From an uncultured Alphaproteobacteria bacterium (GTDB lineage Bacteria; Pseudomonadota; Alphaproteobacteria; UBA8366; GCA-2717185): a stretch of DNA of 64,000 bases. Below the pieces are notes generated by a model that searched no databases, was not told the origin of the DNA, and was given only the letters and a program-made list of their open reading frames with translations. This document shows, in pieces, positions 2,279-33,175 of this stretch (position 1 is its first letter; each line of letters begins with the position of its first letter). The stretch is taken from assembly GCA_943788635.1 (NCBI GenBank), contig CALSRA010000003.1:31203-95202 (forward strand). The letters are read 5' to 3'. The position numbers and the translations under genes are program-made.

Positions 2279-3654
2279 AGGGGCATGAATTTGCCGCACA
2301 AATCCTGCGCGAATACGATATCAGGGGCACTTTCGGTGAAACCCTGAATCCGCAGGATGCTTATGCGTTGGGCCGTTCATTCGGCACCATTCTTGCTCGC
2401 CGGGACGGTCGGCTCGTTTGTGTCGGGTATGATGGCCGCGTCAGCTCTCCGGAGTTGGAAGGCCGCCTGATCGATGGGCTTCGGGCGAGTGGCATGGAAG
2501 TGATGCGGTCCGGTCTTGGGCCGACACCGTCGCTCTATTTTGCGACGAAAGCGTTGCATGCCGATGGCGGTATCATGGTGACGGGGTCGCATAACCCGCC
2601 TAATCACAACGGTTTCAAGATGATGATGGGCGGTGCTTCTTTCTGGGGCGAAGACATCCAGAAATTGGGTGCGATCTCCGCCGCGGGCGACTGGGTCGAC
2701 GGGAACGGCAGTGTCCGTGACGTTGCCCTGATGGATACCTATGTATCGCGTTTGCGGGTGGATTATACCGGACCCAAGGCGTTGAAAGTTGCCTGGGATG
2801 CAGGGAACGGGTCCGCCGGTGAAGCAATGGTTCGGCTGACTGAACAGCTTCCCGGACAGCATTTTCTGCTGAACGAAAAAATTGACGGCACGTTTCCCAG
2901 TCATCATCCGGATCCGACCGTTCCGGAAAATCTGGTGCAGCTGCAGGATGCCGTTGCGGAACACGGGTGCGATCTGGGGATCGCGTTTGATGGTGATGGC
3001 GACAGGATCGGCGTCGTCGATGGCAAAGGCAGGATTCTGTGGGGCGATCAGCTCCTTTCTCTTTACGGGCGCGACTTGCTGTCGCGCCGTCCGGGTTCGA
3101 CGATTATCGCGGACGTGAAGGCCAGCCAGGTTCTTTTCGATGAAATAGCGCGGGCGGGCGGAAAACCGATTATGGCGGCGACCGGCCACTCGATCATCAA
3201 GTCAAAAATGGCGGCATTGGCGGCGCCACTGGCTGGTGAAATGAGCGGTCATATCTTCTTTGCGGATCGCTACTACGGTTTTGATGATGCGCTATACGCC
3301 GCTATTCGCCTGCTTGATATCGTCTCCCATAGCGATCTTTCGCTGGCTGAAATGCGGGATGCGCTGCCTCAGGTCGTGAATACGCCGGAAATCCGCTTTG
3401 ATATCTCGGAAGAACGCAAATTCGAGGTTATTGATGAAGTGAAGGCGCGGCTCGCCACGACGGATGCCAATGTCGATGATACGGACGGGGTTCGTGTACT
3501 GAATGATGATGGCTGGTGGCTTCTGCGGGCATCGAATACCCAGGCTGTTCTGGTTGTTCGATGCGAATCGTCCGATCAGGACGGCCTTGCAAGGTTGAAG
3601 GAAACGGTCATCAGTCAGCTACAGAGCAGCGGCGTCGACGCGCCGGCATTCTAG
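2275..3654 (+). CDS. Phosphomannomutase/phosphoglucomutase (AlgC/ExoC type)
   Basis: REYDIRG, phosphoserine loop TGSHNP, metal loop FDGDGDR, GEMSGH; ATGA overlap with ugd. Confidence 0.95.
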   Translation: MKGHEFAAQILREYDIRGTFGETLNPQDAYALGRSFGTILARRDGRLVCVGYDGRVSSPELEGRLIDGLRASGMEVMRSGLGPTPSLYFATKALHADGGIMVTGSHNPPNHNGFKMMMGGASFWGEDIQKLGAISAAGDWVDGNGSVRDVALMDTYVSRLRVDYTGPKALKVAWDAGNGSAGEAMVRLTEQLPGQHFLLNEKIDGTFPSHHPDPTVPENLVQLQDAVAEHGCDLGIAFDGDGDRIGVVDGKGRILWGDQLLSLYGRDLLSRRPGSTIIADVKASQVLFDEIARAGGKPIMAATGHSIIKSKMAALAAPLAGEMSGHIFFADRYYGFDDALYAAIRLLDIVSHSDLSLAEMRDALPQVVNTPEIRFDISEERKFEVIDEVKARLATTDANVDDTDGVRVLNDDGWWLLRASNTQAVLVVRCESSDQDGLARLKETVISQLQSSGVDAPAF

Positions 3655-3664
3655 CCTGTCTGGA

Positions 3665-5035
3665 TTATTTCGGCCGGTTTGCCGTTTGATTGTTGTCCGT
3701 CGGATCGCTCTGTCCTGAGCGGTTCGGCGCAATTGAGATGCACGGAATTTTGCGGCGTTCCAGCCGCTTGCACGCTGTTTCAGCACTTGCCTGACTCATG
3801 CCGATCAAACGCGCCCGGTACATCAGGCGATCCCCTGCGTGATAGGGGGCGATGCTGATACGGGTGTTCTCGGTGAGCTTCGGTATACGGGATACGGCCT
3901 TTTTTGCTGCTTTTCGCGCCGGCGCGATGTCGCCATAAGCGCCGACCTGTATCGCCCATTCATTTGGATTGCCAGCCCATGCCGGCGCAACGGGGACCGC
4001 GGGTTTGGAGCGCGTGGCTGTTGTCGCGAAAGGGTTGCCCGTCGTCACATTTTTCCCCGGAACCGGTGTCGGGGTAGGCGGCGGTATCAGTGCGATGCGG
4101 TTTGGCAGGCGGTTGGGTGCCACTTTGGCCGGTCTCGGCGATGGTTTCTCAATCTTCTTCTGGCTCAAAGTCGCAAACGGTTGGGAAGCACTGATCTTCT
4201 TGCTGTCCCGTGCCAGTTGCGCAAACCCCCGCTCAAGCAGTGACTTCATATGCTTATCCCGGGAGCGTGCGGTTTTTCCGCCAAAGACAACCCCGATCAG
4301 CCGACGATTGTCTCTTTCGGCCGACGCAGCCAGGTTGAAACCAGAGGCCCGGATATAGCCGGTTTTTATGCCATCTGTTCCGGGGAAGGACTTCAGCAGG
4401 CTGTTATGGTTTTTGAAATCCTTGCCGCGGAAGCTGTACTGCGCGCGGGAAAAGTAGCTGTAATACTGCGGAAAGTCCTTGATCAACTGGCCGGCAAGTT
4501 TTGCCATGTCGCGCGCTGTAGACAATTGTCGACGATTGGGCAGACCGGATGCGTTCCGAAACGTCGTTCGGCGCATGCCCAGCGCTTTGGCTTTCTTTGT
4601 CATCAGCAGCGCAAACTTAATTTCTGTCCCACCCAGCGCCTCGGCAACGACAACAGCGGCATCGTTCGCCGACTTCGTGACCAGTGACAGGATTACTGCT
4701 TCGACCGAAATTTTTTCACCTGTTTTCAGGCCCAGCTTGGACGGTGACATGCCCTGCGCGCGCCTCGATACCGGGAGTTGACTGTCAAGCTTGAGGTGCC
4801 CGCTCTCCAGTGCCTCGAATACGAGATATAGCGTCATCATCTTCGTTAGTGACGCTGGGTAATTCCGTGTATCCGGGTTTGACGCATGCAAGACTCGGCC
4901 CGTATCGGCGTCGAGGACGATTGCGGCATAGCGCGCTTGTGCCGATGATACAGGGAAAAGCACGGCCATGACGGTGAGGACAATAACGGGGAACAAGGCC
5001 AATCGGACCGAACGGAGTAATTTGTTATGTTCCAT
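3665..5035 (-). CDS. D-alanyl-D-alanine carboxypeptidase (peptidase S11) with C-terminal SPOR domain
   Basis: SLTK, SAND and KTG penicillin-binding motifs; signal peptide; Pro-rich linker; WAIQVGAY SPOR start. Start may be 5035 or 5074. Confidence 0.92.
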   Translation of the reverse strand: MEHNKLLRSVRLALFPVIVLTVMAVLFPVSSAQARYAAIVLDADTGRVLHASNPDTRNYPASLTKMMTLYLVFEALESGHLKLDSQLPVSRRAQGMSPSKLGLKTGEKISVEAVILSLVTKSANDAAVVVAEALGGTEIKFALLMTKKAKALGMRRTTFRNASGLPNRRQLSTARDMAKLAGQLIKDFPQYYSYFSRAQYSFRGKDFKNHNSLLKSFPGTDGIKTGYIRASGFNLAASAERDNRRLIGVVFGGKTARSRDKHMKSLLERGFAQLARDSKKISASQPFATLSQKKIEKPSPRPAKVAPNRLPNRIALIPPPTPTPVPGKNVTTGNPFATTATRSKPAVPVAPAWAGNPNEWAIQVGAYGDIAPARKAAKKAVSRIPKLTENTRISIAPYHAGDRLMYRARLIGMSQASAETACKRLERRKIPCISIAPNRSGQSDPTDNNQTANRPK

Positions 5036-5280
5036 GTCGTTGCCGATGGGGCCAATCACACCAGGATATCTCATGAATCCAATAAGCTAAGAAGCCTAGT
5101 TAAGGTGGACCCTATTGTCCACCTGTAAGCTGGCCCGGAACCGGGTAGCAAAGGCCTTCCCGTCCGATTCCGCAAAATGCGGAGGTTACCTCTATCCCTT
5201 GAAGGTGCCGCACAGTCCCTTTTCTGCCTTGCGAAAGCGTTTTATTCGCCGTGATACGGCTGTCAATCCGCGGGAGTGAT

Positions 5281-10436: not shown

Positions 10437-11609
10437 TCAGACCGGGTCGTTTTCGGTCCGGCGGAAGGGCGACATTTCGGCCAGATACTCCGATTCACCG
10501 GCCTCGGCCCGGCGTTCCCGCGCCAGGAAGTCCCCGACCGCATCGCGGAATCCCTCATCGCGAATCCAGTGCGCGCTTTGCGTGCGTACCGGCAGATAGC
10601 CGCGCTGGATCTTGTGCGGCCCCTGGGTCCCGGCCTCGACCGTGGCCAGCCCGCGTTCAATGGCGAAGTCGATCGCCTGGTAATAGCAGCATTCGAAATG
10701 CAGGAAGGGGTAGCGCCCGTCACAGCCCCAGTTGCGGCCATACAGCGCGGTATCGCCCACCATGTTCAGCGCCCCGGCGATGGCGAGCCCGTCGACATCG
10801 GCCCGCACCAGCCCGACCCGGTCGGCCATCCGCTCCCCCAGCATGGCGAAGAAATCGCGCGTCAGATACGGATAGCCCCATTTGCGGTCATAGGTATTGA
10901 CGTAGAACTGGTGAAACTCGTCCCAGTGATGGGGCAGGATATCCGCCCCGTTCAGCATCGCCACGTTGATCCCCATATCGGCGACCTTCAGGCGCTCCTT
11001 GCGGATATTCTTGCGCTTGCGGCTGGACAGGTCGGCCAGGAAATCATCGAACCCGCCATAATCCCGGTTGTGCCAGTGAAACTGGTGCCCGTGCCGCACC
11101 AGAAACCCGGATTCCGCCAGCGCGTTCACGTCGGCTTCCTGCGCGAAGGTGACATGCAGCGAGGACACCCCGTAGCGCGTCGCGATCTCGATCAGCCCGC
11201 CGATCATCGCCTTGCGCACCGCATCCGCCTGCGGCCCCGGCCTGACCAGCAGCCGCGGCCCGGCCACGGGTGAGAACGGCACCGCGAGCTGCAGCTTGGG
11301 ATAATAGCGCCCGCCCGCGCGCTCATAGGCATCGGCCCAGCCCCAGTCGAAGACATACTCGCCCTGCGAATGGTTCTTCAGATACATCGGCGCCGCGCCC
11401 AGCAGCCCGCCGGCTTCGTCCTGCACCACCAGATGCTGCGGCATCCAGCCGCTTTCCTCGCCGACCGACCCGCTTTCCTCCAGCGCGTGCAGGAAGGTGT
11501 AACTGACAAACGGGTTCGCGGTCCCGGCACAGGCATCCCACGCCGCCCCGTCGACCAGGTCGATCCGGTCCAGCAGTTCAATGGTTATCGCCTCGCGCCC
11601 GTCCGGCAT
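10437..11609 (-). CDS. DUF482 / FemAB-like GNAT family protein
   Basis: HSQGEYVFDWGWADAY, YYPKL, LHFECCYYQAI and EAGTQGPHKIQRGY motifs; start placed at MPDGRE. Confidence 0.92.
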   Translation of the reverse strand: MPDGREAITIELLDRIDLVDGAAWDACAGTANPFVSYTFLHALEESGSVGEESGWMPQHLVVQDEAGGLLGAAPMYLKNHSQGEYVFDWGWADAYERAGGRYYPKLQLAVPFSPVAGPRLLVRPGPQADAVRKAMIGGLIEIATRYGVSSLHVTFAQEADVNALAESGFLVRHGHQFHWHNRDYGGFDDFLADLSSRKRKNIRKERLKVADMGINVAMLNGADILPHHWDEFHQFYVNTYDRKWGYPYLTRDFFAMLGERMADRVGLVRADVDGLAIAGALNMVGDTALYGRNWGCDGRYPFLHFECCYYQAIDFAIERGLATVEAGTQGPHKIQRGYLPVRTQSAHWIRDEGFRDAVGDFLARERRAEAGESEYLAEMSPFRRTENDPV

Positions 11610-11691
11610 CACCCCTCCAGACCGCCCCCCGCCGCCATCAACGCGCCACGCGGGCGCGAATGGGGCGAATAGGGCGAAAAGATCGTCATCC

Positions 11692-11951
11692 GTTTGCATT
11701 CATTGGCATCACTATACATCCACAGCACCCGCCCGGCGGCGCGAAAAGTTGCAAATCATGCGCATCGATTGTCATCCATTGACATTGGTTGTCATCGCCG
11801 CATTTTCCAGCCGTCGCGCGGAACCGGCGCGGGGTGGCTGGTGGAAAACACGGATAGTATTGGCATCGATTGGCATTCCTGTGCATTGCCTTCGTGGCGA
11901 TGGGCGCGCGGCTACGCGAAATGATTGGCTTTTATTGGCATTCATTGGCAT
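11692..11951 (-). repeat. Five dispersed copies of an 18-bp motif (consensus ATGCCAATSRATGCCAAT on the minus strand)
   Basis: Copies at 11692-11709, 11758-11775, 11778-11795, 11859-11876 and 11934-11951. Confidence 0.75.
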
Positions 11952-12383
11952 TTCCGCCGCCGAACGCGGTTGTTGTTCTGGTTCCGGCGCGAGATCGGCC
12001 ATGCCGGCGACCGCCGACAGCATCGCACCGTAATCCGGCCGGGCCCGCCGCGCGCCACGGCGCCCTTCGGGGACCATCCCGGTCACCCGCAGCTGCATCG
12101 CCACGGCGCGCAGGGCGGTATTGAACTGGTTATGCTCGATGACGCGTTCATAGATGACCTGCAGCCGCGCCAGCACCGCGCTCACATCCCCGCACTGCTG
12201 CTCGGCAACCGCGTCGCGCAGCTCGGCGATCCGCAACTGGATATCGGGCCGCGCCAGCAACCGGCAGGCCTGCGCCGCCGCATTGCTTTCCCCATACCCC
12301 GCCGCCAGCGCCGCCGCACGGCCCACGGGCCGGCGGACATATTCCCGGCAGAACCGCTCATGCCGCTCGTTCGGCTTGTTCAT
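11772..12383 (-). CDS. Orphan terminase small subunit-like protein
   Basis: N-terminus RHERFCREY...AALAAGY...AQACRLLARPDIQLRIAEL matches the TerS helix-turn-helix pattern; GGGAGG RBS; no large terminase or capsid genes nearby. Confidence 0.78.
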   Translation of the reverse strand: MNKPNERHERFCREYVRRPVGRAAALAAGYGESNAAAQACRLLARPDIQLRIAELRDAVAEQQCGDVSAVLARLQVIYERVIEHNQFNTALRAVAMQLRVTGMVPEGRRGARRARPDYGAMLSAVAGMADLAPEPEQQPRSAAEMPMNANKSQSFRVAARPSPRRQCTGMPIDANTIRVFHQPPRAGSARRLENAAMTTNVNG

Positions 12384-12408
12384 ATCCTTGTCCTCCCCTG
12401 AAAGAAAG

Positions 12409-12464
12409 AGAAAATAGGAATGTAAGCCATTAACGGGCTAAAAGTCAATAAATTCCTATATTCT
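12409..12464 (-). promoter_or_regulatory. Sigma70-like promoter of the terS-like gene bracketed by a 13-bp inverted repeat
   Basis: Minus-strand TTGACT (12443-12448), 18-bp spacer, TACATT (12419-12424); arms AGAAAATAGGAAT (12409-12421) and ATTCCTATATTCT (12452-12464), one mismatch. Confidence 0.6.
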
Positions 12465-12576
12465 GTCGAGGCTACATTATATCTAACTGGAACAAAATAA
12501 CTTCCTTAAGTAGAAATTCTCGACAATAGTACTAACTATATTTTGAAAACAAACTTATAGCTGCGTATCATAGACT

Positions 12577-13608
12577 ATGATTATTGAAGGAAAGTATTTC
12601 GATGAAATATTACGCAAGCTCTACGGAGAGCTTAGAAAGAGCACTGACACTTTCAATGCAAGCAAGGGCAAAGGCCAAGACCTTCTCGGGCCAAAAATCA
12701 TACTCAAAGAGCCGCTTGCCAGAATTAGCGCTACGGCAACACGAGGGCGATTAATCTCTGCGCTTGCAGAGTTTTGCTGGTATATGAGTGGGAGCGCAGA
12801 CTTAGATTTCATTCGATTTTATATACGCGATTATCCTCCCAAAGAAGCCACAGGATCAATTGAAGAGGCTTACGGTCCTCGGCTGATCGGCTCTGGTGAA
12901 TTTGGACAGTCGTACGACCAATTAGAACGAGTGATTTATCAACTTAAGAATAAGCCAGATACACGACGGGCCGTTATTTCGATTCTTCAAGCCAATGATC
13001 TTGAGCCTGAAAGAGCAGAGGCGCCGTGTACGGTAGCTTTGCAGTTCATTCGTCGACGCGGACGCTTGCACATGATCGCCATGATGCGATCTAATGATGC
13101 TTATCTGGGCTTTCCTCATGACGTGTTTTGCTTCACGATGATTCAAGAATTAATTGCTCGTTCCCTCGGTGTCCAAGTTGGTGACTACCATCATTTTGCA
13201 ACGAGTCTCCATCTATATGAGGAGGATGTGGATAGGGTTTCTAACTATTTGGGTGAAGGGTTTCAAAATCCTACGTTTGCTATGCCCAAAATGCCTAATG
13301 GCTGTCAGCGCGAAAACTTGCGTTTATTTCTCGAAGTCGAGAGATCTATAAGGGCTGGACATATAACTAAGGCTATAGAAATTAAACTGCCAACCTATTG
13401 GCGTGACCTGTCTCTTGTCCTTCTTCGCCATGCAGACGCGAAAATGAAAAGAGGGATGGGCGTGCTTGACGAAAATTTTTCCAATGTAACGAATGGATTT
13501 TACAAAAACTTCTTTATAAAGCGGCCAAGGGTGGCTTCAAAAAACCCAATCTTGCCAACGATTCAGGACAAACTAGATTTAGGTGATGAAAATGCCGGCC
13601 AGAATTAA
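12577..13608 (+). CDS. Thymidylate synthase-fold protein, probably a dCMP/CMP hydroxymethylase-like enzyme
   Basis: AEFCWYMSG, AYGPRL, PDTRRAV, catalytic PCT, MRSNDAYLGFPHD and SLHLY motifs; Asp at the E. coli ThyA Asn177 position. Confidence 0.88.
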   Translation: MIIEGKYFDEILRKLYGELRKSTDTFNASKGKGQDLLGPKIILKEPLARISATATRGRLISALAEFCWYMSGSADLDFIRFYIRDYPPKEATGSIEEAYGPRLIGSGEFGQSYDQLERVIYQLKNKPDTRRAVISILQANDLEPERAEAPCTVALQFIRRRGRLHMIAMMRSNDAYLGFPHDVFCFTMIQELIARSLGVQVGDYHHFATSLHLYEEDVDRVSNYLGEGFQNPTFAMPKMPNGCQRENLRLFLEVERSIRAGHITKAIEIKLPTYWRDLSLVLLRHADAKMKRGMGVLDENFSNVTNGFYKNFFIKRPRVASKNPILPTIQDKLDLGDENAGQN

Positions 13609-14526
13609 AAATAAAGTCAAATTTGAAAAAATATCCGTCCTTTTAGATGATGTTCCCAACGAATTGCTTCCACTCTCTGGATTAACTACCGCCGTACGGA
13701 AATCTGTTCTCGTCGGGCAATTAATCGATAGCATTCGTAGGATAGAATATCTTAGGGTAATTTCTGTTAGAGCAAAGTCGCCGAGTCTCCATACGCCTTA
13801 TTCTGGGAGTTTTGAGCCTTTTAGTGGTTCAGCATTGATGCATAAAACAGGACGAACTGACGATGCCTTTTGGCTAGTTTGCCTTGCCACTCACTTCGGC
13901 AAGCACAAGATTGACGGCTGGAACCTTACCGAAGATTTTTACGGTCGATTCGCGCAAGGGGGCATTTGGGAGTGGGCTGCTGCAAAAAAGGATCCAGATG
14001 CGGTTTCAATCTGGTTAGCGGCAGTCTATCCTCATATTACGAGTGTTGGGGCGCTCTAGGCGTTTCGGCAACCATCGTAAATTCGAAACCCTAAAGCCAG
14101 GATTAAAGGGTACTGGCCATGCTGTGAAAACCTACATCCAATGGATTGAACAGTATGGCTCCCATCAGGCTTTAATTGATAATGTACACAAACGGGTTGG
14201 GCAAAACCCCAAAGAGGTTTTCGCGTATCTTTATAAGGAACTCGACAAGGTTTCCAAGCTTGGGCGTCTCGGAAAATTTGATCTTTTGTGCAACCTGAGC
14301 AATCTTTTGATCGCGCCAATTTTACCGGACAACGCATATATCGCTGATCTCAACTGGCCCTAAAGCTGGCGCGAAATTACTATTCGGAAATCAATTGAAT
14401 GCTAAGAGTCTTGAGGCATCCTGCGTGAAATTAGCCGACCACCTTAATGTCAGCCCGCAGGTAATAGAGGATTCGTTGTGCAATTGGCAAAAAAGCCCGG
14501 ACAAATATATTTACTTTCGGGGTTGA
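13586..14526 (+). CDS. aGPT-Pplase clade 3-like protein (alpha-glutamyl/putrescinyl thymine pyrophosphorylase family, HhH-glycosylase-like fold); two frameshifts
   Basis: Removing one G at 14048-14051 and one base near 14349 gives a single ~310-aa ORF with AFWLVCLATHFGKH, RRFGNHRKFETL, LGRLGKFDLL, STGPKAGAKLLFG and IEDSLCNWQKSP; start overlaps the TS-like stop. Confidence 0.72.
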
Positions 14527-15617
14527 TCTGTCCAGCGGTATCGACGCTTTAGGTGCTGCATTTGGTTGAATCGGATGATTCCTTCATGTTGGAGTTGTCC
14601 GACAATTAATCCCGGCGCGACCCCCAACTTTTTTTGCAAAGTTGATAATCAAAAATCTTGAGTTACTAAGTGATAAAAATTCTTCACGGTGCTCCATTGG
14701 TACAATTATACTAGCGGCGTATTCATTCGCTTCCTGTTCGCATTCATCTTCTTCCGTTTCCGAGCTTTCTAAAATAGGCATTTTATCGTAGTGATGTAAC
14801 AGATGTGCTATTTCATGAAACAATGTGAACCAAAATTGATCATCCGATAAATAGCGAAAGCTGAGTTGAATATGTGGGATGTTATTTGAAAAAATACGGA
14901 TTGCACCACTCGCAGTGCACCCAATAGGTGCTCTCACAATTGCAAATTTTACCCTGGCTGCAGCAAATAATTCTTTCAGTTTTGGCAAAAACAATTCAGG
15001 ACTTTTATACCATGTTAAGCGCCGAAAATGCCGAAGTTGGCTTCTTAGAACACTTGGTGACCATTTCGGCGACCTTATCGTGCTGTGTCTCAATCTCGCC
15101 TTGACGAAGCCACGCCGTCGTTTTTATCTCGCACGATGCGAATGATGTTGAGCGTCGATAGGCTGCATGTTGAAAGGTATTTTCATATCTTCCTTGCCAC
15201 TGCGCGAGTGATGAAACGCCAAAAAATGTTAAGCATTCCGTGATCTGCTCGTCCTTTGACCGTACCCTGTCAATCCACCCGAATTTCTGCATATCTCTTA
15301 TGAGGAAGCCGATTCAGAAGTTCGGCAAGGCTGTTAACATTGGCGTTCTCGGGCGATGCTATGCTGGCTCGGTAATCGTGTTCTCTTGCAAGCCAAAACG
15401 ATTCCGAAGCACCTAGAGTGGTTGCTAATTGATTCGCTAAGATTCTATCGATTGCGTGAACACCATCTAGAAGTTTCTGCGCCACGGCTAAAGGTCGCCC
15501 AATTTTATGAGCAAATTGCTCGATCGTCAGTTCTCGTTCTTCAAGGATAGTCAATATTGTGTTGCCGGGGGGGGATACCCAGTCAGGTTTTTCCATGATT
15601 TCGTCATCTAACATCAT
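14511..15617 (-). CDS. HigA-like HTH fused to an ImmA/IrrE (M78) metallopeptidase; three frameshifts
   Basis: N-terminal PDWVSPPGNTI xre-HTH, AWLRQGE, FWFTLFHEIAHLL (HExxH), EQEANEYA and C-terminal LGVAPGLIVGQLQH...LKRRYRW, after removing single extra bases near 15302, 15063-15065 and the A7 run at 14629-14635. Confidence 0.85.
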
Positions 15618-15912
15618 TGATCCCCATCACCTTTACTCGTCCTACCGTAGACCAGTCGTAGATGTTGCCATCTTCGGCAGCCGTATAGTTTGGGGCCATT
15701 AGAATCGAAATGAGATCCGGGACGGTAAGCGTACACAAATTTCCTTCGAAAATTACCTGACCTACCGGAAGCTCAAACACGTTACTTGCTGCCTGAATAT
15801 CAGAATGCCGTGCCTGCATAGAGACTGCTGCCTCTTTCCCCAAATACTTTATTGCAACAGAAGAGTGAAAGCAAATTTCTTGGAGGATTTGGGAGTTGTA
15901 TGAAATTAACAA
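15604..15912 (-). CDS. HigB-like (killer-suppression family) protein
   Basis: 102 aa, TTG start, pattern ISY...LQEIC...A.KYLG..AA...ARHSDIQAA.N..EL; stop overlaps the start of the HTH-IrrE gene in toxin-first order. Confidence 0.68.
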   Translation of the reverse strand: MLISYNSQILQEICFHSSVAIKYLGKEAAVSMQARHSDIQAASNVFELPVGQVIFEGNLCTLTVPDLISILMAPNYTAAEDGNIYDWSTVGRVKVMGINDVR

Positions 15913-15931
15913 AATTTTCTCTCTATACTGC

Positions 15932-15957
15932 CCAACTATACTTAAATTATTAGTTGG
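15932..15957. promoter_or_regulatory. Palindromic operator upstream of the higB-like gene
   Basis: CCAACTA-N12-TAGTTGG lying just downstream of a minus-strand TTGACC (15963-15968). Confidence 0.55.
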
Positions 15958-16460
15958 CGCAGGGTCAAGAGACGCTATTTCTTTCTAAAAGACCTTAACT
16001 AACCAGATTCGAACGGACAATACGCATTATTTTTCATTCTTTTTCTAGGCGTGCGATTGAGAGGGGGACGGGCAGTTTTGACGTTTACCTCGTCTCATAC
16101 CGTCTGTTCGGTTGTCAACTCTCGCTCCTTCGACACGCGGTCGAGGCCTTCAAAAATAATATCGATAGCATTGTCGTCGAATGGGCGCGTCTCGCCGCTG
16201 ATATCCGCTGTGCGCGGGGCGGATTCCTGCCCTAGGTGCAGGAATCCCGCGATCAATTTTACGGCGATAGTGCACTATTTTGGTCGTAATTCATTCTCCG
16301 TCAGGCGGTAGCTGGGGCGGACCTCGCGGAAGTGCCGGTTTCTCCCCGTCAAAACAATCCCCCCGGTTGATCTCCCCCACCCCCCCGCCGGTAAGCTTCG
16401 CGCGTCCCTTCGGGGGCGCTGTATCTTGTGACATTGTGACCATGGCTTCGGGGGAGGCGA

Positions 16461-24546: not shown

Positions 24547-25362
24547 ATGAGCATGCGCAAGGTTGGCAATACGGCGGTATCGGTTGACGGAACGGGGCCG
24601 GCGGTCGCCCTGGTGCATGGCATGGGTCTGAACCAGGACATGTGGCAGGGGATGCTGCCGGCGCTGGCCGCGCGTTTCGCGGTGATCCGGTATGACCTTC
24701 TGGGTCATGGGGAAAGCACGGCGCCACCGACGCCTTGTACGCTTGGTGATCTGGTCGCGCAGCTTGAAACGCTTCTGGCGGCGTTGGATATCGATCACGC
24801 GGCCATCGTCGGTTTTTCGCTGGGCGGTACGCTGGCGCAGGCATTCGCGGTCGATCACCCGGAACGAACCAGGGCCATCGCTGTCCTGAATTCGGCTTAC
24901 CGGCGCGATGTCGCGCAGCGTGACGCGATGCTCGAACGGCTGCGGCTTTCCGAAGCGGCGGGGCCGGCGGCAACAGTCGATGCGGCGCTGGAACGCTGGT
25001 TCACATCGGAGTTTGCCCAAGGGAGGCCCGACGTGCTCGATCAGGTGCGGCGCTGGATGCTGGCGAACGACCCGGCTGATTATGCGACGCTGTATCGGGT
25101 GCTGGCGGAAGGGTACGCAGCGCCGGTTGCGGATGGCCGCATCCTGGCTGACGCCATTGGCGATATTGCCTGCCCGGCACTAATTTTGACCGGCGAAGAG
25201 GACCGCAACAGCACGCCGGACATGACCCACGACATGGCCGCTGCCATCCCTGGCGCCACCGCAGCGGTTGTGCCCGGGTTACGGCATATGGGGCTGGCCG
25301 AACAACCGGATCGGTTTACCGATATTCTGATCCCGTTCCTGGACAGGGCGCTGGCCTCATGA
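24547..25362 (+). CDS. Alpha/beta hydrolase (3-oxoadipate enol-lactonase-like)
   Basis: LVHGMG, RYDLLGHGES, GFSLGG nucleophile elbow and ERWFT. Confidence 0.88.
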   Translation: MSMRKVGNTAVSVDGTGPAVALVHGMGLNQDMWQGMLPALAARFAVIRYDLLGHGESTAPPTPCTLGDLVAQLETLLAALDIDHAAIVGFSLGGTLAQAFAVDHPERTRAIAVLNSAYRRDVAQRDAMLERLRLSEAAGPAATVDAALERWFTSEFAQGRPDVLDQVRRWMLANDPADYATLYRVLAEGYAAPVADGRILADAIGDIACPALILTGEEDRNSTPDMTHDMAAAIPGATAAVVPGLRHMGLAEQPDRFTDILIPFLDRALAS

Positions 25363-26543
25363 CACCAGCGGCAAAGGGCGCAACGCCCGAATGGCAGTTC
25401 GCCGGCGCGGCGATATTCGACCATGGCTTCCGGCCGTTCTTTTTCGCTGCGGGGTTCTGGGGCGCGCTGTCGATGCTGCTGTGGCTGCCGGTTTTCGAAG
25501 GAACAATGGCGTTGCCGACGGCGTTCGACCCGGTTTCCTGGCATGTGCATGAAATGCTGTTCGGCTTCGTGGCGGCGGCGATTGCCGGTTTCCTGTTGAC
25601 CGCGATCCCGAACTGGACCGGGCGCAAGCCGCTGCAGGGCGCGCCGCTGATGATATTGTTCGCGATCTGGGTGCTCGGGCGGGGGGCGGTGGCGTTCTCT
25701 GACCTGATTGGCAGCGGTGTTGCGGCTGTTTGTGATCTGGCCTTTCTTGCGTCCCTGATCGCGTTTGTGCTGCGTGAAATTTTGGCCGGGCGGAACTGGC
25801 GCAACCTGCCGATACCGGTAGCGCTGTCGGGGCTGCTGGCGGCCAACGCCATGATCCATGCGGAAGTGACGGAACTGGCGATGCTGGGCGAATACGGCTG
25901 GCGGCTGGGCATCGCTGTCGTGACCATGCTGATCGGCCTTATTGGCGGACGGGTCGTCCCCGCCTTTACCCGCAACTGGCTCGCCAAACGCGGGGAGACC
26001 CGGTTGCCGGCGTCATTTGGTGTGATCGACGGGATCGCGCTGGCACTGGCGGCGGTCGGGCTGTGCGCCTGGGTCGTGGGGACCGATGCAGTCGTCAGCG
26101 GCGGGCTGTTGCTGGGGGGCGGCGTGGCGATGACAGTCCGGCTGGCGCGCTGGGGCGGGTATCGGACCCTGGCGGAGCCGCTGGTCTGGTCGCTGCATGC
26201 GGGGTTTGCCTGGGTGCCCATCGGTCTGCTGTTGTCCGGGGTGGCGTTGCTATGGCCGGCGATAGTGCCGTCATCGGCCGGGGTGCATGCGCTGACCGCC
26301 GGTGCCTTCGGATCGATGATCCTGGCCATGATGACGCGGGCCACACTTGGGCATAGCGGGCGGGACCTTGTCGCGGATGCAACGACGACAGCGATCTACG
26401 GGCTTATCGGGCTGGCCGCAATTCTGCGGGTCGCGGCGGCATTCTTGCCCGACATGGCAATACTGTGGGCCGCCGCCGCAGCCTGGGTCGCCGCCTTCGG
26501 CCTGTTCACACTGTCTTACGGGCGGTTATTGCTCACCCGCTAG
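25359..26543 (+). CDS. nnrS: NnrS family protein
   Basis: GFRPFF, WHVHEMLFGF, GFLLTAIPNWTG, GGRVVPAFT and RATLGHSGR motifs. Confidence 0.93.
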   Translation: MTPAAKGATPEWQFAGAAIFDHGFRPFFFAAGFWGALSMLLWLPVFEGTMALPTAFDPVSWHVHEMLFGFVAAAIAGFLLTAIPNWTGRKPLQGAPLMILFAIWVLGRGAVAFSDLIGSGVAAVCDLAFLASLIAFVLREILAGRNWRNLPIPVALSGLLAANAMIHAEVTELAMLGEYGWRLGIAVVTMLIGLIGGRVVPAFTRNWLAKRGETRLPASFGVIDGIALALAAVGLCAWVVGTDAVVSGGLLLGGGVAMTVRLARWGGYRTLAEPLVWSLHAGFAWVPIGLLLSGVALLWPAIVPSSAGVHALTAGAFGSMILAMMTRATLGHSGRDLVADATTTAIYGLIGLAAILRVAAAFLPDMAILWAAAAAWVAAFGLFTLSYGRLLLTR

Positions 26544-27283
26544 CTGGCGGTGGCGCCGCCGTCGACGATCAGTTCGGTTCCCGTGATGAAGGATGCTTCA
26601 TCCGATGCCAGGAAGACGATGGCGTTGGCGACTTCCTCCGGCTGCGCAAAACGGCCCAGCGGGATGCCGGCGAAGCGTTCGGCGCGGATTGCTTCGGGGA
26701 CGGCTTCGTAGCCCATGACGGTTTCGACCGGGCCGGGATGGACCGAATTGCAGCGGATGCCGTCCTTTGCATAGGTCATCGCAACGGATTTGCTCATCAG
26801 CCGCACCGCGCCTTTGGAGGCGCCGTAATGCGATGAGAGTGATGCGCGGATGCCGGCCGTGGAGGAGATATTGACAATGGAGCCGCCGCCGCTGTCGCGC
26901 ATCGCCGACAGCACCGATTTACAGCCCAGGAAGACGCCCTTGGCGTTTACATCCATGATCAGGTCCCATTCGGCTTCGCTGATCTCGTGCATCGGCTTGC
27001 GCTGATAGACGCCGGCATTGTTGACCAGAATATCGAGCCGCCCATGGGCATCGGTCAGCGCCTTGACGGCGGCATCCCAGTCGGCGGCTTTGGTGACATC
27101 GAGATTCAGGTAGGTGACCGATTGTCCGGCTGCGGTCAGTTCGGCGGCCAGTTTCTCACCGGCTTCCGCGGCGATGTCGCCCAGCCCCACATGGGCGCCT
27201 TCCGCGGCCAGCCGCCGGACCGTTGCTTCGCCGATTCCCCGGTGTCCGCCGGATACCAGCGCAACTTTTCCTTTGAGTGTCAT
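26540..27283 (-). CDS. Short-chain dehydrogenase/reductase
   Basis: GGHRGIG, NNAG, YGASK and NSVHPG motifs. Confidence 0.92.
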   Translation of the reverse strand: MTLKGKVALVSGGHRGIGEATVRRLAAEGAHVGLGDIAAEAGEKLAAELTAAGQSVTYLNLDVTKAADWDAAVKALTDAHGRLDILVNNAGVYQRKPMHEISEAEWDLIMDVNAKGVFLGCKSVLSAMRDSGGGSIVNISSTAGIRASLSSHYGASKGAVRLMSKSVAMTYAKDGIRCNSVHPGPVETVMGYEAVPEAIRAERFAGIPLGRFAQPEEVANAIVFLASDEASFITGTELIVDGGATAS

Positions 27284-27315
27284 GGTTATTCCTCCCCCGT
27301 AAAATTACTGGCCGG

Positions 27316-28293
27316 TCAGCGCAACCGGCCGACCGGATTGCCCTTGGCGCCCCTGTTCGCGGCGAGCAGGCAGATGATGTCATGCGCGATGGTGGCGGCC
27401 GCGATCGCTGTTATTTCCGATACGTCATAGGCCGGTGCGACCTCGACCACGTCCGCCCCCGCAATCGCCAGTCCCTCCAGCCCATGCAGTATCCCGAGCG
27501 CCTGGGCCGAGCTGAGCCCGCCCGCGACCGGCGTGCCCGTGCCCGGTGCGAAGGCGGGGTCCAGGCAATCAATATCGAAGGTCAGGTAGACCGTGCTGTC
27601 GCCGAGCCGTTCGCGGATCGCCGCGACCGTGGCGTCGATACCGTGCCGGTGAATCCAGGGTGCTGTGAGGATATCGAACCCGTGGTCGCTGTCATTATGA
27701 GTGCGAATGCCGACCTGACACGAGCTTGCGGGGTTGATCAGCCCTTCATTGGCGGCACGCAGGAACATCGAGCCGTGATCGAAGCGCTTGCCGTCATCCT
27801 CCCAGGTGTCGCAATGGGCATCGAAATGCAGCAATGAGACGGGGCCATGCTTTTTCGCGATGGCGCGCAGGATCGGATAGGTCACGAAATGGTCGCCGCC
27901 GAGGCTGAGCGGGATAGTGGTGGAGGCGAGGATCGTCGCAATATGGCTCTCGATGGCGTCAACGATGGTTTCCGGGTGATGCGGGTCCAGGAAGCAGTCG
28001 CCGTAATCCACGACTGACAGCGTGTCGAACGGATCGAATCCGAAGGGAAAGGCCTTCAGTTCCGCCAGTTGTACTGATGCTGCGCGGATCGCCCGCGGAC
28101 CCAGCCGCGCACCGGGCCGGCAGGTTACGGCGCCGTCATAGGGAATCCCGCTGACCGCGACATCGACGCCGGCAAGGTCACGCGAATACCGCCGGCGCAG
28201 GAAGCTCAGCGCGCCGCCATAGGTCATTTCCGGCCAGCGGCCCTGGTTTTCCGGTTTCAGGAAGGCCTGATCGCCCTGTTCGTCCGACGTCAT
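27316..28293 (-). CDS. speB: Agmatinase (ureohydrolase family)
   Basis: GGDH, DAHCD, DIDCLDPAFAPGTGTP and DVVEVAP motifs; divergent from speA. Confidence 0.9.
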   Translation of the reverse strand: MTSDEQGDQAFLKPENQGRWPEMTYGGALSFLRRRYSRDLAGVDVAVSGIPYDGAVTCRPGARLGPRAIRAASVQLAELKAFPFGFDPFDTLSVVDYGDCFLDPHHPETIVDAIESHIATILASTTIPLSLGGDHFVTYPILRAIAKKHGPVSLLHFDAHCDTWEDDGKRFDHGSMFLRAANEGLINPASSCQVGIRTHNDSDHGFDILTAPWIHRHGIDATVAAIRERLGDSTVYLTFDIDCLDPAFAPGTGTPVAGGLSSAQALGILHGLEGLAIAGADVVEVAPAYDVSEITAIAAATIAHDIICLLAANRGAKGNPVGRLR

Positions 28294-28470
28294 GGATTTC
28301 GTTCCGTAAGCGCGGGGCGTGGCTGCCCGCTACGGCATTGTCGATCAAAGCGAGGGGCGCTTCAACATGTCTCCTGCGAGAGGACGAAATTACTTGTTTT
28401 CCGCATGGATCGCGATATGTACAGCCCTGTTGGGGGGCCGCATCCGGCCGCCGGGAAAGAGAAAAAACTG

Positions 28471-30378
28471 ATGGATGACGGAACGCTCGCTACTGCCGAA
28501 GACCTCTACCGTATCGGGCGGTGGGGCGAAGGGTTTTTCGGCGTTGATGATGCCGGGCGGATGCAGGTACTGCCGGTCATCGGCAATGACACGGTACGCA
28601 TCACCATCCAGGAGGTGGTCGAGGAACTGACGGAAAAGAATGTCCAGTTCCCGATCGTGCTGCGCTTCCACGACATCCTCAAGAACCGGGTGCGGCAGAT
28701 CAACGAAAGTTTCGCGACGGCTATCACTGATGCGGAGTATGGCGGCGTCTATCGCGGTGTCTACCCGATCAAGGTCAACCAGATGCGCGAGGTCGTGGAC
28801 GAAATCGTCGATGCCGGCAAGCCGTATCACTACGGGCTGGAAGCGGGATCGAAGCCGGAACTGATGGCGGTGCTCTCCTATGATGTGGGCGATGAGGCGC
28901 TGACCATCTGCAACGGCTACAAGGACGAGGAATTCCTGCGGCTGGCCCTGCTGGGCAACAAGCTGGGCCGCAAACTCATCGTCGTGGTCGAGAAGTTTTC
29001 GGAGATCGCGCCGCTGCTGCGCCTGGCGGGCGAAATGGATGTGCGGCCGATGATCGGGCTGCGCATCAAGATGCGGGTGAAGACCGAAGGAAGGTGGAGC
29101 GGGTCGAGCGGCGAACGCGCCAAGTTTGGGCTGACGACCTCGGAAATCCTCAATGCCATCGCCTTCATCCAGGAACAGGGTTACGGCGACTGCATCCAGT
29201 TGCTGCATTTCCATATCGGCAGCCAGTTGTCCGATATTCGTTTTGTCGAGGACGCGGTGCAGGAAGCGGCCCGTATCTATGCCCGCCTCCGCAAGCGCGG
29301 CATTCCGTTGCAGTACCTCGATATCGGTGGCGGGCTGGGTGTCGACTATGACGGCAGCCGGTCGAGCGGCGATTCGTCGATGAACTATTCGCTCGCCGAA
29401 TATGCCAGCAGCGTCGTGCACAGCGTGAAGCAGATCTGCGACCTGGAAGAGGTCGATCACCCGAACCTGGTCAGCGAAAGCGGCCGCGCCGTGGTGGCGC
29501 ATCATTCCTGCGTGATCATGAAGGTGATCGGGGAGATCGCCAATGGCGCCAATGGCGTTGCGACCGACGCGGAAGAGGGCGAGCATTTCCTGGTGACGGA
29601 AATACGCGACCTCTGCGACGAACTCGCCGAGCACTGTAATTATCAGGAAGCCTGGAACCGGGCATCGCGGGTGATGGAAAGCGTGCTGGAAGGGTTCAAG
29701 CTGGGCGTTGTCCGGCTGGAGGAACTGGCCAAGGTCGAGACACTGTACTGGAAGCTGCTGCGGGCGGTCTCGGAAGGGATGAAATCGGCGGACTTCGTTC
29801 CCGAGGATCTGAAGGACATCGACGAGCTGCTGGCCTCGCAATACCTGTGCAATTTCTCGCTGTTCCAGTCGGCGGCGGACAGCTGGGCGATCGGCCAGGT
29901 GCTGCCCGTGGTGCCGCTGACCCGGCTGGACGAAACGCCGACCAACAACTGCACGCTCGCTGATATTACCTGCGACAGCGACGGCAAGATCGCGCATTTC
30001 ATCGGCGAACATGGCGAACAATCAACGGTGCCGCTGCACGAGCTGCGCCCCGGCGAGGATTACTATCTCGGCCTGTTCCTCACCGGCGCCTATCAGGATG
30101 TGATGGGCGATATGCACAACCTGTTTGGCCGGCTTAACGAGGTGCATGTCTTCTGCGACGACGAGGACCCGACCGATTTCTATATCGAGGAAGTCATCCC
30201 CGGCTCATCCGCCGGGCAGGTGCTGACCATCATGCAATACAACGCCCCCACGATGGCCAACCAGGTCAAGCGTATGATCGACGCGGAAGTCCGCAAGGGT
30301 GTCATTCGCTCCCGCGAAGGCGTCCGGATGACCGATTTCTACGAAGCGTGCCTGAACGGATATACGTATCTGAAGTGA
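28471..30378 (+). CDS. speA: Biosynthetic arginine decarboxylase
   Basis: YPIKVNQ (PLP lysine), EAGSKPEL, HFHIGSQ, ESGRA, TCDSDG and GAYQDVMGDMHNLFG; start could be 28405 or 28417. Confidence 0.95.
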   Translation: MDDGTLATAEDLYRIGRWGEGFFGVDDAGRMQVLPVIGNDTVRITIQEVVEELTEKNVQFPIVLRFHDILKNRVRQINESFATAITDAEYGGVYRGVYPIKVNQMREVVDEIVDAGKPYHYGLEAGSKPELMAVLSYDVGDEALTICNGYKDEEFLRLALLGNKLGRKLIVVVEKFSEIAPLLRLAGEMDVRPMIGLRIKMRVKTEGRWSGSSGERAKFGLTTSEILNAIAFIQEQGYGDCIQLLHFHIGSQLSDIRFVEDAVQEAARIYARLRKRGIPLQYLDIGGGLGVDYDGSRSSGDSSMNYSLAEYASSVVHSVKQICDLEEVDHPNLVSESGRAVVAHHSCVIMKVIGEIANGANGVATDAEEGEHFLVTEIRDLCDELAEHCNYQEAWNRASRVMESVLEGFKLGVVRLEELAKVETLYWKLLRAVSEGMKSADFVPEDLKDIDELLASQYLCNFSLFQSAADSWAIGQVLPVVPLTRLDETPTNNCTLADITCDSDGKIAHFIGEHGEQSTVPLHELRPGEDYYLGLFLTGAYQDVMGDMHNLFGRLNEVHVFCDDEDPTDFYIEEVIPGSSAGQVLTIMQYNAPTMANQVKRMIDAEVRKGVIRSREGVRMTDFYEACLNGYTYLK

Positions 30379-31461: not shown

Positions 31462-31577
31462 GTGTTCCCCCGGCGGAATTGATTGCGCGGAACGGTAGTG
31501 GCTGGCGTGGCTTGCCGCAAGCCGGGCCGCACCGGTACAGTTCCCGCACGAACCCTCCCACCGTATGAGGCCAAGCC

Positions 31578-33116
31578 ATGATTGATCCCCGCACTCCCAT
31601 CCTTGTCGGCTGCGGCCAGGTGACCGACCTGGAAACCCCGCCGGAAAAGGGCCAGTCGGCCATCGACATGATCGAACGCGCGGCGCGGCTGGCGGCGGCG
31701 GATACGGGTGCCGGCGACGCGGTCCTGAACGGGCTCGATTCACTGTGCATCCTGCGGCTCTACACGGATACGAGCTGGCGCTTCGAATCGCCCTTCGGCC
31801 GTTGCAACAATCCTCCGGCGGCGGTGGCCAAACGGCTTGGTACCGCGCCGGGGCGGCTGCAATACACCTCGCCCGGCGGGAATATGCCGCAATACATGGT
31901 CAACCGCACGGCGGAGGAAATCGCGCGCGGTGAGATCGAGATGGCGCTGATCGGCGGCGGCGAGGCGCTGCGCACCCAGCGCGGGGCGCGCAAGGCCGGG
32001 ATCGAGATCGACTGGAATGAGGAAGCCGAGGGCGCATACGAGGAGCTGGGCGACATGCGCCCCGGCGTCAATGACTACGAAATGCGCCACGGCATGCGCG
32101 CGCCGATCTTCAACTACCCGCTGTTCGAAAACGCTATCCGCGCCGACCGGGGCCGGGGCGCCGCCGAACACCAGCAGGCCATCGGCAATCTGCTGGCGGG
32201 CTATGCAAAGGTCGCCCACGACAACCCGCTGGCGGTGCGGCGCGAAGGATTCACGGCGGAACAGATCGCCACGGTGTCGGCGGATAACCGGTATATCGGC
32301 TTCCCCTATACGCGGTTGATGAATTCCAACCCCTATATCGACCAGTCGGCGGCGGTGATCATGACCAGCGTCGGCAAGGCGCGGGAACTGGGCATCGACC
32401 CGTCAAAATGGGTTTACCTGCATGGCTGTGGCGATGGCTGGGACCACTGGTGGCTTACCGAACGGGTGAACTACCATTCCTCCCCCGCGATCCGTACCGT
32501 GGGCGGGCCGGGCCTTCGGCATGGCCGGCAAGACCCCGGCGGATATGGATTTCCTCGACCTGTACAGCTGCTTCCCGGCGGCGATCCAGATCGGCGCGCA
32601 GGAAATCGGTATTGCGGAGGACGACCCGCGCGGGCTGACGGTGACGGGCGGACTGCCGTTCTTTGGCGGGCCGGGCAACAATTACGTCACCCATTCCATC
32701 GCCGAGATGATGAACAAGGTACGCGGCAAGCCCGGCAGCTTCGGGCTGTGCACGGCGAACGGCCATAACGTGACCAAACACGGCGCCGGTATCTATTCGA
32801 CGACGCCGAACCGAAGGTTCCTGGCAGCGCGAAGACCCGGCATTGGGGCAGGCGGGAAATCGACGCCATGCCCAAACCGCCGCTGACCGAGCAGGCCAAC
32901 GGCGCGGCCCGGATCGAAACCTGGACGGTGATGCACCGCCCGGACGGCCCGGAACTCGGCATCGTCATCGGCCGGCTGGACGAAGGAAACGTGCGCTTCG
33001 TCGCCAATACGCCGTCAGATATGGCGACCCTGATGGAGCTGCAGGAAAACGGCGATGTGGGACGGCCGGGCATGGTGACCCATACGGACGGGCAGAACGT
33101 GTTTGTGCCGGGGTAG
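31578..33116 (+). CDS. Thiolase-like acetyl-CoA acetyltransferase; frameshifts near 32500-32510 and 32810-32860
   Basis: DPRTPILVGCGQ, GGNMPQ, DLYSCFP, LTVTGGLPFFGGPGNNY and IETWTV spread over three ORF frames. Confidence 0.85.
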
Positions 33117-33175
33117 GGCTTGTTTTTATTCGCAAACCGTCGTCGCAGATTTACGCAATCTGCTAGGGGTTTGCT

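Follow-up and report, generated by a model that had tools for sequence, protein, structure and literature searches.

A clade-3 aGPT-Pplase gene, split by single-base insertions in its record, in a mobile four-gene cassette with a predicted cytosine-type hydroxymethylase

A 64,000-nucleotide stretch of the genome of an uncultured alphaproteobacterium (GenBank assembly GCA_943788635.1, contig CALSRA010000003.1, positions 31,203 to 95,202), referred to here as the window, contains a gene of the amino acid:DNA transferase superfamily that is recorded in three reading frames. The gene belongs to aGPT-Pplase clade 3 (aGPT-Pplase3), its product is of the helix-hairpin-helix (HhH) glycosylase-like fold class and carries the conserved Glu/Cys motif of the superfamily, and the split is an artefact of the record. 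It lies within a mobile cassette of four genes, next to a gene for a thymidylate-synthase-like (TS-like) enzyme of cytosine type and convergent with a regulatory pair, a gene for a fused helix-turn-helix (HTH) and M78 metallopeptidase regulator (HTH-M78) and one for a 102-aa protein. The best explanation of the whole, to which we assign a probability of roughly 0.6, is an intact clade-3 gene in a mobile cassette, broken in this record by insertion errors, together with a putative cytosine-modification module.

A clade-3 aGPT-Pplase gene read in three frames

Open reading frames (ORFs) cover positions 13583-14526 in three frames, with frame 1 open over 13583-14059, frame 2 over 14043-14363 and frame 3 over ~14311-14526; homology in the last of these begins at 14350. 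All three pieces match the Pfam model PF18746, and all score above its curated cut-off of 25 bits. The matches are colinear, with piece 1 corresponding to profile positions 3-119 (102 bits), piece 2 to positions 119-217 (95 bits) and piece 3 to positions 218-279 (55 bits), together covering 3-279 of the 279 positions in the profile. PF18724, the amino acid:DNA transferase family, is matched more weakly by the same pieces. Seven intact homologues from other genomes, 310-313 aa in length, cross both junctions in tblastn alignments (13583-14050, 14049-14360 and 14350-14523). Junction 1 is a single surplus G within the GGGG run at 14048-14051, and junction 2 is a single surplus base at 14349 (gat[C]tca). 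The homologue alignment indicates that the probable start is an ATG at either 13586 or 13592, and the 3' end of the TS-like gene overlaps the start of aGPT-Pplase3.

Such a colinear three-piece pattern cannot be chance. An earlier note on this DNA, made from the sequence alone, had proposed a gene of ~310 aa spread over three frames, with one G too many at 14048-14051 and one extra base near 14349, and had called it aGPT-Pplase clade-3-like. The PF18746 matches of all three pieces bear out both the gene and the family, the junctions lie where the note had placed them, and full-length homologues do run across them, contrary to what the note said would refute its reading. The two features by which the family had been recognized, an E-x-x-L-C-x-x-x-K motif and a VSKLGRLGKFD segment, are both found in the pieces from the window, the former as IEDSLCNWQK.

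Origin of the frameshifts

In a word index of public sequencing runs, the island that holds the cassette is matched by 20 runs, which belong to 11 studies and are without exception marine, seawater, estuary or aquatic metagenomes. Assembled contigs, as distinct from raw reads, from four runs of four different studies were aligned to positions 12400-16100 of the window. All four contigs lack one base at 14048, and all four likewise lack one base at each of 14621, 15064 and 15302, the three sites of extra bases in the neighboring HTH-M78 gene; the base at 14349 is missing from three, and the fourth contig does not reach this position. One contig, with a depth of 39, covers the whole of 12400-16100 and differs from the window by 12 substitutions and exactly five gaps, which fall at the extra-base sites. 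All five differences are one-base insertions in the record, three of them lengthening a homopolymer and two of them not. The confirmation from reads that the earlier note had called for, carried out here with assembled contigs, thus finds both indels of the aGPT-Pplase3 gene missing in independent studies.

Genes elsewhere in the same assembly are broken in a similar manner. When compared with full-length models, rpoB is recovered as five colinear pieces and rpoC as nine, in alternating frames in each case, whereas in the genomes of all three relatives used as a control rpoB is a single match (positions 2-1238). The rpoB and rpoC pieces sit outside the window, at ~45060-53366 of contig C12 of the window's assembly. 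The aGPT-Pplase3 pieces retain all 49 of the invariant columns of the family and all 114 of those conserved at >=90%, and pseudogene decay is unlikely because no conserved family residue has been lost. The gene is very probably intact in nature, its split being an error of this record. The 'hidden split gene' of the earlier note therefore holds in that the split is present in the record, and does not hold as a pseudogene or as recoding, the extra bases being peculiar to the record.

Two points pull in the other direction. Contigs drop rare variants, and a minority strain with real frameshifts could for this reason be present. The errors are also patchy: 17 genes outside the island (~6,281 aligned residues, ~19 kb), when compared with ORFs from a congeneric genome, show no more than two frame changes, and these fall in a single gene. 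The island itself is unusually error-dense, with five indels within 1.3 kb, a clustering for which we have no explanation. A cassette copy that is decaying in this strain, with frameshifts that are real, would account for this contrast with the remaining ~19 kb and could be carried by such a minority strain; it is nonetheless very unlikely, given the absence of the insertions from the contigs of all four other studies, the uniform one-base size of all five differences, the complete set of conserved residues, and the like breakage of rpoB and rpoC, which are essential. Programmed ribosomal frameshifting can be dismissed as the cause of the two junctions. Each would call for a shift of the +1 kind, and a G run does lie at the first, but the natural copies seen in the contigs are unshifted at both places and already contradict it, none of the 114 longer homologues is split, and the neighboring gene has three further shifts of the same kind.

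Patchy single-base insertions in this assembly break even rpoB and rpoC, and any apparent pseudogene in it therefore needs read support. The gene outside the island with both frame changes is located at 31557-33164 of the window (minus strand), and these probably represent another pair of indel errors.

Family, fold and conserved motif

A profile search of 1.84 billion representative proteins finds 688 representatives of the family at E<=1e-3. The 114 longer relatives are all 304-313 aa in length and all carry PF18746, as single-domain proteins. An intact relative scores 286 bits against PF18746; with PF18724, clade 3 scores 212 bits and gp46 of phage PaMx11 97 bits. Neither the aGPT-Pplase3 pieces nor the intact relative match any glycosylase Pfam family at E<=0.1, and the clade-3 profile has no matches among PDB sequences at E<=10.

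The exact intact allele present in the contigs was not returned by a protein search, in which the best match is 72% identical to piece 1, and the fold assignment consequently refers to a relative (P0001, 74% identical to the pieces in the window) and not to the window's own protein. The AlphaFold2 (AF2) model of P0001 is all-helical with a pLDDT of 89. Comparison of this model with 48,161 chains using VIA-align places the top 26 matches, without exception, in the HhH glycosylase superfamily. The phage enzyme 8z2m (PaMx11 gp46, a 5-phosphomethyl-dU glycinyltransferase) is matched with Z 9.5 over 221 aligned residues, and the classical HhH glycosylases Mag1, AlkA, Ogg, EndoIII and MutY with Z 7-9.4. 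A close relative of the gene product thus has the HhH glycosylase-like fold for which the earlier note had proposed to look.

The C-terminal motif is nearly invariant in a set of 146 diverse members that are 30-43% identical: E292, D293, N297, W298 and K300 are present in 100% and C296 in 99%, and in the hairpin-like segment GRLGKFD R225 is conserved at 100% and D230 at 99%. Using hhalign, the clade-3 sequence QxIEDaLCNWQK is paired with QEVETILCKWK of gp46, E292 and C296 falling on the gp46 motif, in an alignment that is weak (E 1.2e-3, probability 19%) and spans only the C-terminal 66 columns. PMC11472151 describes Glu243 of gp46 as binding the metal that lies at the base and proposes that Cys247 attacks C6 as the nucleophile; mutation of the equivalent Cys or Glu in M6 gp51 and ViI gp247 abolishes activity, as reported in PMC8989533. 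The near-invariance of the Glu/Cys motif and its alignment with gp46 suggest that covalent C6-attack chemistry is probably retained in clade 3.

The thymidylate-synthase-like partner

The closest solved relative of the protein encoded directly upstream of aGPT-Pplase3 is MilA (5b6d/5jnh), a CMP 5-hydroxymethylase, with E 7e-41 over residues 18-286. Substrate choice in this group can be read from three positions, as described in PMC5175136: Lys133 and Ala176 of MilA specify ribose, with Arg and Ser specifying deoxyribose, and Asp186 specifies cytosine, with Asn specifying uracil. The TS-like protein in the window does not have the ribo-type signature of MilA (Lys133, Ala176), having instead Arg, Ser and Asp at the positions of K133, A176 and D186 (MilA numbering), and it contains the motifs PCT (with the catalytic Cys), TRRA, MRSND and PHDV. 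Among 13 TS-like proteins from the cassettes Arg is found in 12, and Ser and Asp in all 13; the hydroxymethylase gp51 of PaMx11, which served as a control, has Asn at the base-specifying position. Because of this Arg/Ser/Asp signature the partner is predicted to be a hydroxymethylase of the deoxycytidylate type, like gp42 of T4, and not of the dUMP type.

The catalytic Cys and the cytosine-specifying Asp of the cassette enzyme are shared with both MilA and T4 gp42. It differs from MilA, which has Lys133/Ala176, in its Arg/Ser pair, the deoxyribose-type combination also present in T4 gp42 and in thymidylate synthase. The enzymes that accompany the two also differ, since the cassette partner is an HhH-fold protein and not a glycosidase of the type of MilB, with which MilA is associated. 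In one IMG/VR contig (locus L034, positions 3052-5056) the TS-like gene is interrupted, with ~1 kb between the parts that encode residues 1-63 and 62-316, perhaps through an insertion or an intron.

Organization and distribution of the cassette

The features of the island and its four genes are listed in Table 1. The TS-like gene and aGPT-Pplase3 are transcribed in that order, and the 102-aa gene followed by the HTH-M78 gene are transcribed towards them from the opposite strand, with the 3' ends of aGPT-Pplase3 and the regulator gene overlapping.

Table 1. The low-GC island of the window and the genes of the cassette (window coordinates).
Feature	Coordinates	Strand	Description
Low-GC island with four-gene cassette	12400..16050	.	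~3.6 kb; GC 43-45%, flanks ~60%
TS-like enzyme	12577..13608	+	343 aa, intact; PF00303, E 8e-28; predicted dCMP C5-hydroxymethylase type
aGPT-Pplase clade-3 gene	13586..14526	+	amino acid:DNA transferase superfamily; read in three frames, extra bases at 14048 and 14349
HTH (HigA-like) + M78 (ImmA/IrrE) metallopeptidase regulator	14511..15617	-	362 aa in relatives; broken here at 14621, 15064 and 15302
102-aa protein	15604..15912	-	intact; predicted RelE/ParE/HigB-like fold (AF2 and Foldseek); overlaps start of HTH-M78 gene

The same organization is found at 26 true loci, 8 of them from bacterial genomes and 18 from IMG/VR contigs, with identities down to 35%. A TS-like gene directly precedes aGPT-Pplase3 in all 26, the convergent HTH-M78 gene follows in each of the 24 that have downstream flank, and a small ORF is present upstream of the regulator in all 11 with listed ORFs. 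This gene order recurs on both plasmids inspected, one of them P1-like and from Pantoea, the other from Rathayibacter. One further candidate, a locus in Bacilli (L012) with 39% identity over 54 residues, does not carry the gene and was removed from the cassette counts.

The flanks vary from locus to locus and include Mu-like head genes, P1-type darA/ddrB, a relaxase, a serine recombinase, integrases, transposases, DNA methyltransferases and metabolic genes, the settings ranging over a Mu-like prophage, P1-like elements, relaxase/recombinase elements and plasmids. The gene is rare, occurring in 1 of 60 relatives and, among 400 further genomes from the class, in 1; the family is found on 10 plasmids from four phyla, and tblastn finds no clade-3 gene in 50,697 deposited phage genomes. 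None of 108 flanking proteins from 11 loci matches a kinase family, and no pyridoxal phosphate (PLP), radical S-adenosylmethionine (radical-SAM) or flavin (FAD) enzyme accompanies the pair at these loci. A search with the kinase family PF18723 has no match in the window's genome, which is 84% complete, and is weak as a negative since the control genomes were equally silent.

Between window positions 11609 and 16360, synteny with the genome of another member of the genus is lost. The corresponding site in that genome (L059 5200-8500, contig C6 of G002 at ~25200-28500, equal to window 11610-16359) is occupied by an unlike insert, also of low GC, that encodes a complete Type II restriction-modification system with a restriction enzyme, a C5-cytosine methyltransferase and Vsr. 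The cassette is horizontally mobile, and the synteny break together with the restriction-modification system at the same site marks it as mobile cargo in a hot spot for defense-type genes. Searches around the island revealed no convincing flanking direct repeats (att sites), and promoter and terminator scans of the island gave matches at consensus level only.

The island is bordered by a lone terminase-small-subunit-like gene (11772-12383, minus strand), and five degenerate direct repeats of ~36 nt with the core TTGGCATTCATTGGCAT are located within and upstream of it, at 11674-11951. On one 118.6-kb IMG/VR contig the cassette is present near both ends (L035 and L036), beside P1-type darA/ddrB; the duplication is probably terminal redundancy of a circular phage-plasmid assembly. 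A distant cassette (L039) has, directly upstream of the TS-like gene at 4634-4933, a gene for a NUDIX protein that matches the PADLOC candidate PDC-S07 (E 1e-29).

Proposed function

The clade-2 proteins PaMx11 gp46 (PUGT, 8z2m), M6 gp51 and ViI gp247 resemble clade 3 in the HhH-glycosylase-like fold, in matching PF18724, in a Glu-x3-Cys-x-Trp motif that aligns, and in having an adjoining gene for a TS-like hydroxymethylase. Clade 3 differs in that its members reside in bacterial chromosomes, prophage-like contigs and plasmids and are absent from the deposited phage genomes searched, that its loci have no kinase, PLP, radical-SAM or FAD enzyme alongside (11 loci), that its hydroxymethylase partner is of the cytosine type (Asp) and not the uracil type (Asn), and that the motif Glu is followed by Asp where gp46 has Thr.

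We propose a chemistry directed at hydroxymethylcytosine in DNA and independent of a kinase, a tentative suggestion whose odds we put clearly below even. The TS-like enzyme would make 5-hydroxymethyl-dCMP, which host kinases and polymerase would place in DNA. The aGPT-Pplase3 protein would then flip the hydroxymethylated pyrimidine out of the helix and its cysteine would attack C6; the C5 substituent would leave with the glutamate perhaps helping as an acid, an exocyclic methylene would form, and some nucleophile would subsequently be added to give a hypermodified cytosine without the action of a DNA kinase. Expression of the operon may be held back by the HTH-M78 protein, perhaps together with its RelE-like partner, and released by a signal, for example DNA damage or infection. 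The cassette may then benefit a mobile element, or the bacterium that hosts it, in conflicts over restriction/anti-restriction or with phages, a role suggested by the genomic setting and one published prediction (see below). More doubtful is the fullest form of this proposal, a self-contained inducible system for cytosine hypermodification in which a dCMP hydroxymethylase and a kinase-free clade-3 transferase, under a HigB-like/HTH-M78 sensor, would act as a weapon or a shield.

Several observations weigh against this proposal. The leaving group in the known pathway comes from a DNA kinase, and the cassette has none. T4-type use of hydroxymethyl-dCMP requires a dedicated deoxynucleoside monophosphate (dNMP) kinase, which the cassette also lacks. 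In addition to the weakness of the gp46 alignment, a Foldseek search of the P0001 model against the PDB yields no match at E<=1e-3, and the top VIA-align match, tied with 8z2m, is a queuosine-5'-monophosphate hydrolase (7u07, Z 9.8). This enzyme represents the queuine salvage family DUF2419/Qng1, which acts on the free nucleotide and not on DNA. As for a role in defense, a PADLOC-type gene is present within ~5-6 kb in only 3 of 11 loci, and in PADLOC-DB 2.0 neither the TS-like protein nor any of the three aGPT-Pplase3 pieces matches a family, the regulator alone doing so; the association behind such a role is therefore a weak one.

Among the alternatives the one that survives best, although unlikely, is that the cassette works at the nucleotide level with the logic of MilA and MilB. 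The aGPT-Pplase3 protein would act on free 5-hydroxymethyl-dCMP, either cleaving its glycosidic bond or derivatising the nucleotide, and the cassette would leave DNA unmodified and instead deplete the pyrimidine pool, poison it or produce a small molecule. MilA is the closest solved relative of the TS-like protein, and during the synthesis of mildiomycin an N-glycosidase cleaves the compound that MilA makes (PMC5175136 and PMC4081090); the overlap of the two cassette genes fits coupled production, and the 7u07 protein is itself a mononucleotide hydrolase of HhH fold. The DUF2419/Qng1 proteins (7ugk is matched with Z 9.2) are also of similar size to those of clade 3, from which they differ in being only 9-10% identical and in having no sequence-level relation to them in any search made. 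Against nucleotide-level action, the near-invariant Glu-x3-Cys motif is the one that performs C6 attack and C5 transfer on DNA in the solved clade-2 enzyme, the GRLGKFD hairpin-like segment is conserved, and dCMP hydroxymethylation alone would, from standard nucleotide metabolism, be expected to leave dCTP undepleted.

Two further alternatives concern DNA itself. The gene product could act as a DNA glycosylase on pyrimidines that are hydroxymethylated or modified in some other way, the TS-like enzyme supplying the marked base and the abasic sites left by its excision destroying invading or replicating DNA. The fold is shared with HhH DNA glycosylases, and defense by DNA glycosylases directed against the modified cytosines of phages is known (PMC11078745); the lack of any glycosylase Pfam match at E<=0.1, and a conserved motif that fits a transferase and not a glycosylase active site, make this distinctly unlikely. 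A little less probable still is the canonical thymidine hypermodification of phages M6, ViI and PaMx11, in which a kinase whose gene lies outside the cassette would phosphorylate 5-hydroxymethyl-dU in DNA, and aGPT-Pplase3 would add an amino acid or polyamine. Superfamily and catalytic motif are held in common, and PMC8989533 gives this as the only proven activity of the superfamily. The partner has Asp in 13 of 13 cassettes, and not the Asn of the phage control, the 108 flanking proteins of 11 loci include no kinase family, tblastn finds no clade-3 gene in the deposited phage genomes, and the silence of PF18723 in the window's genome points, weakly, the same way.

The family is already known, with a Pfam model, and the gene described here is a further member of it; the split as first stated is an artefact. 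What can be added is that the copies of clade 3 examined accompany a predicted cytosine-type hydroxymethylase and a regulator pair of their own, on prophages, plasmids and in chromosomal hot spots. Should the proposed hydroxymethylcytosine chemistry prove true, the chemistry known from thymidine hypermodification would reach a further base as well as the genomes of cells, a new DNA mark could be written with a compact system of two enzymes, and the phage thymidine pathway would have its first counterpart that is cellular and directed at cytosine. The aGPT-Pplase clades were reportedly defined by Iyer et al. in 2013, and the neighborhood of the cassette may already have been described there. 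A full-text literature search by clade-3 name and Pfam id, the coverage of which did not extend to the clade-defining paper, gave no paper, and no title or abstract listed among the aGPT-Pplase papers concerns clade 3, in agreement with the statement of the earlier note that the substrate and transferred group of this clade are undetermined. The DefensePredictor paper (PMC13092281) counts the aGPT-Pplase domain among predicted, not validated, defense domains and describes a validated system with a thymidylate synthase and a 5-hmdU kinase; it also predicts an 'aGPT-Pplase plus HTH' system (Fig. 6F), which may or may not be this cassette.

The regulatory gene pair

The HTH-M78 gene is recovered in four pieces in alternating frames when aligned by tblastn with four intact relatives (15614-15303, 15301-15017, 15087-14608 and 14654-14526). 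The regulator in the window matches Pfam Peptidase_M78 (E 4e-10, quoted for the M78 domain), and an intact relative matches HTH_3 and M78, as well as the NCBIfam HigA model TIGR02607 with E 1.4e-9, which is below the cut-off of that model. The PADLOC matches of the regulator are PD-Lambda-2_B (5e-15), RmrA and capP. The combination of an M78 domain and an HTH is shared with ImmR/ImmA, CapH/CapP, PD-Lambda-2_B and RmrA, and the HigA-like HTH, with a small gene of predicted RelE/HigB-type fold upstream as in higBA, recalls HigB/HigA. The cassette regulator differs from modules of the ImmR/ImmA and HigB/HigA types in that HTH and peptidase are fused in one 362-aa protein, and the pair differs further in being convergent with the genes that it presumably controls and in that the small protein matches no toxin family by sequence.

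The 102-aa gene is kept upstream of the regulator in both close and distant cassettes. Its product has no Pfam family, nor have 14 members of its group, and hhalign with a bona fide HigB domain gives E 0.13; the ESM Atlas returns unnamed or beta-helix clusters only. The AF2 model (pLDDT 92) is matched in Foldseek principally by toxins of the ParE/HigB/RelE type, which make up 26 of the best 27 matches listed, with TM 0.45-0.70, probabilities up to 0.99 and E values that are weak (0.01-0.4). Near the start of the HTH-M78 gene the window has a run of eight G residues at 15567-15574 (C8 on the coding strand, within Ser-Pro-Pro-Gly codons). In a contig from one study (X9, depth 11) this run is shorter by one G, which would shift the frame and may reflect slippage, phase variation or a contig error.

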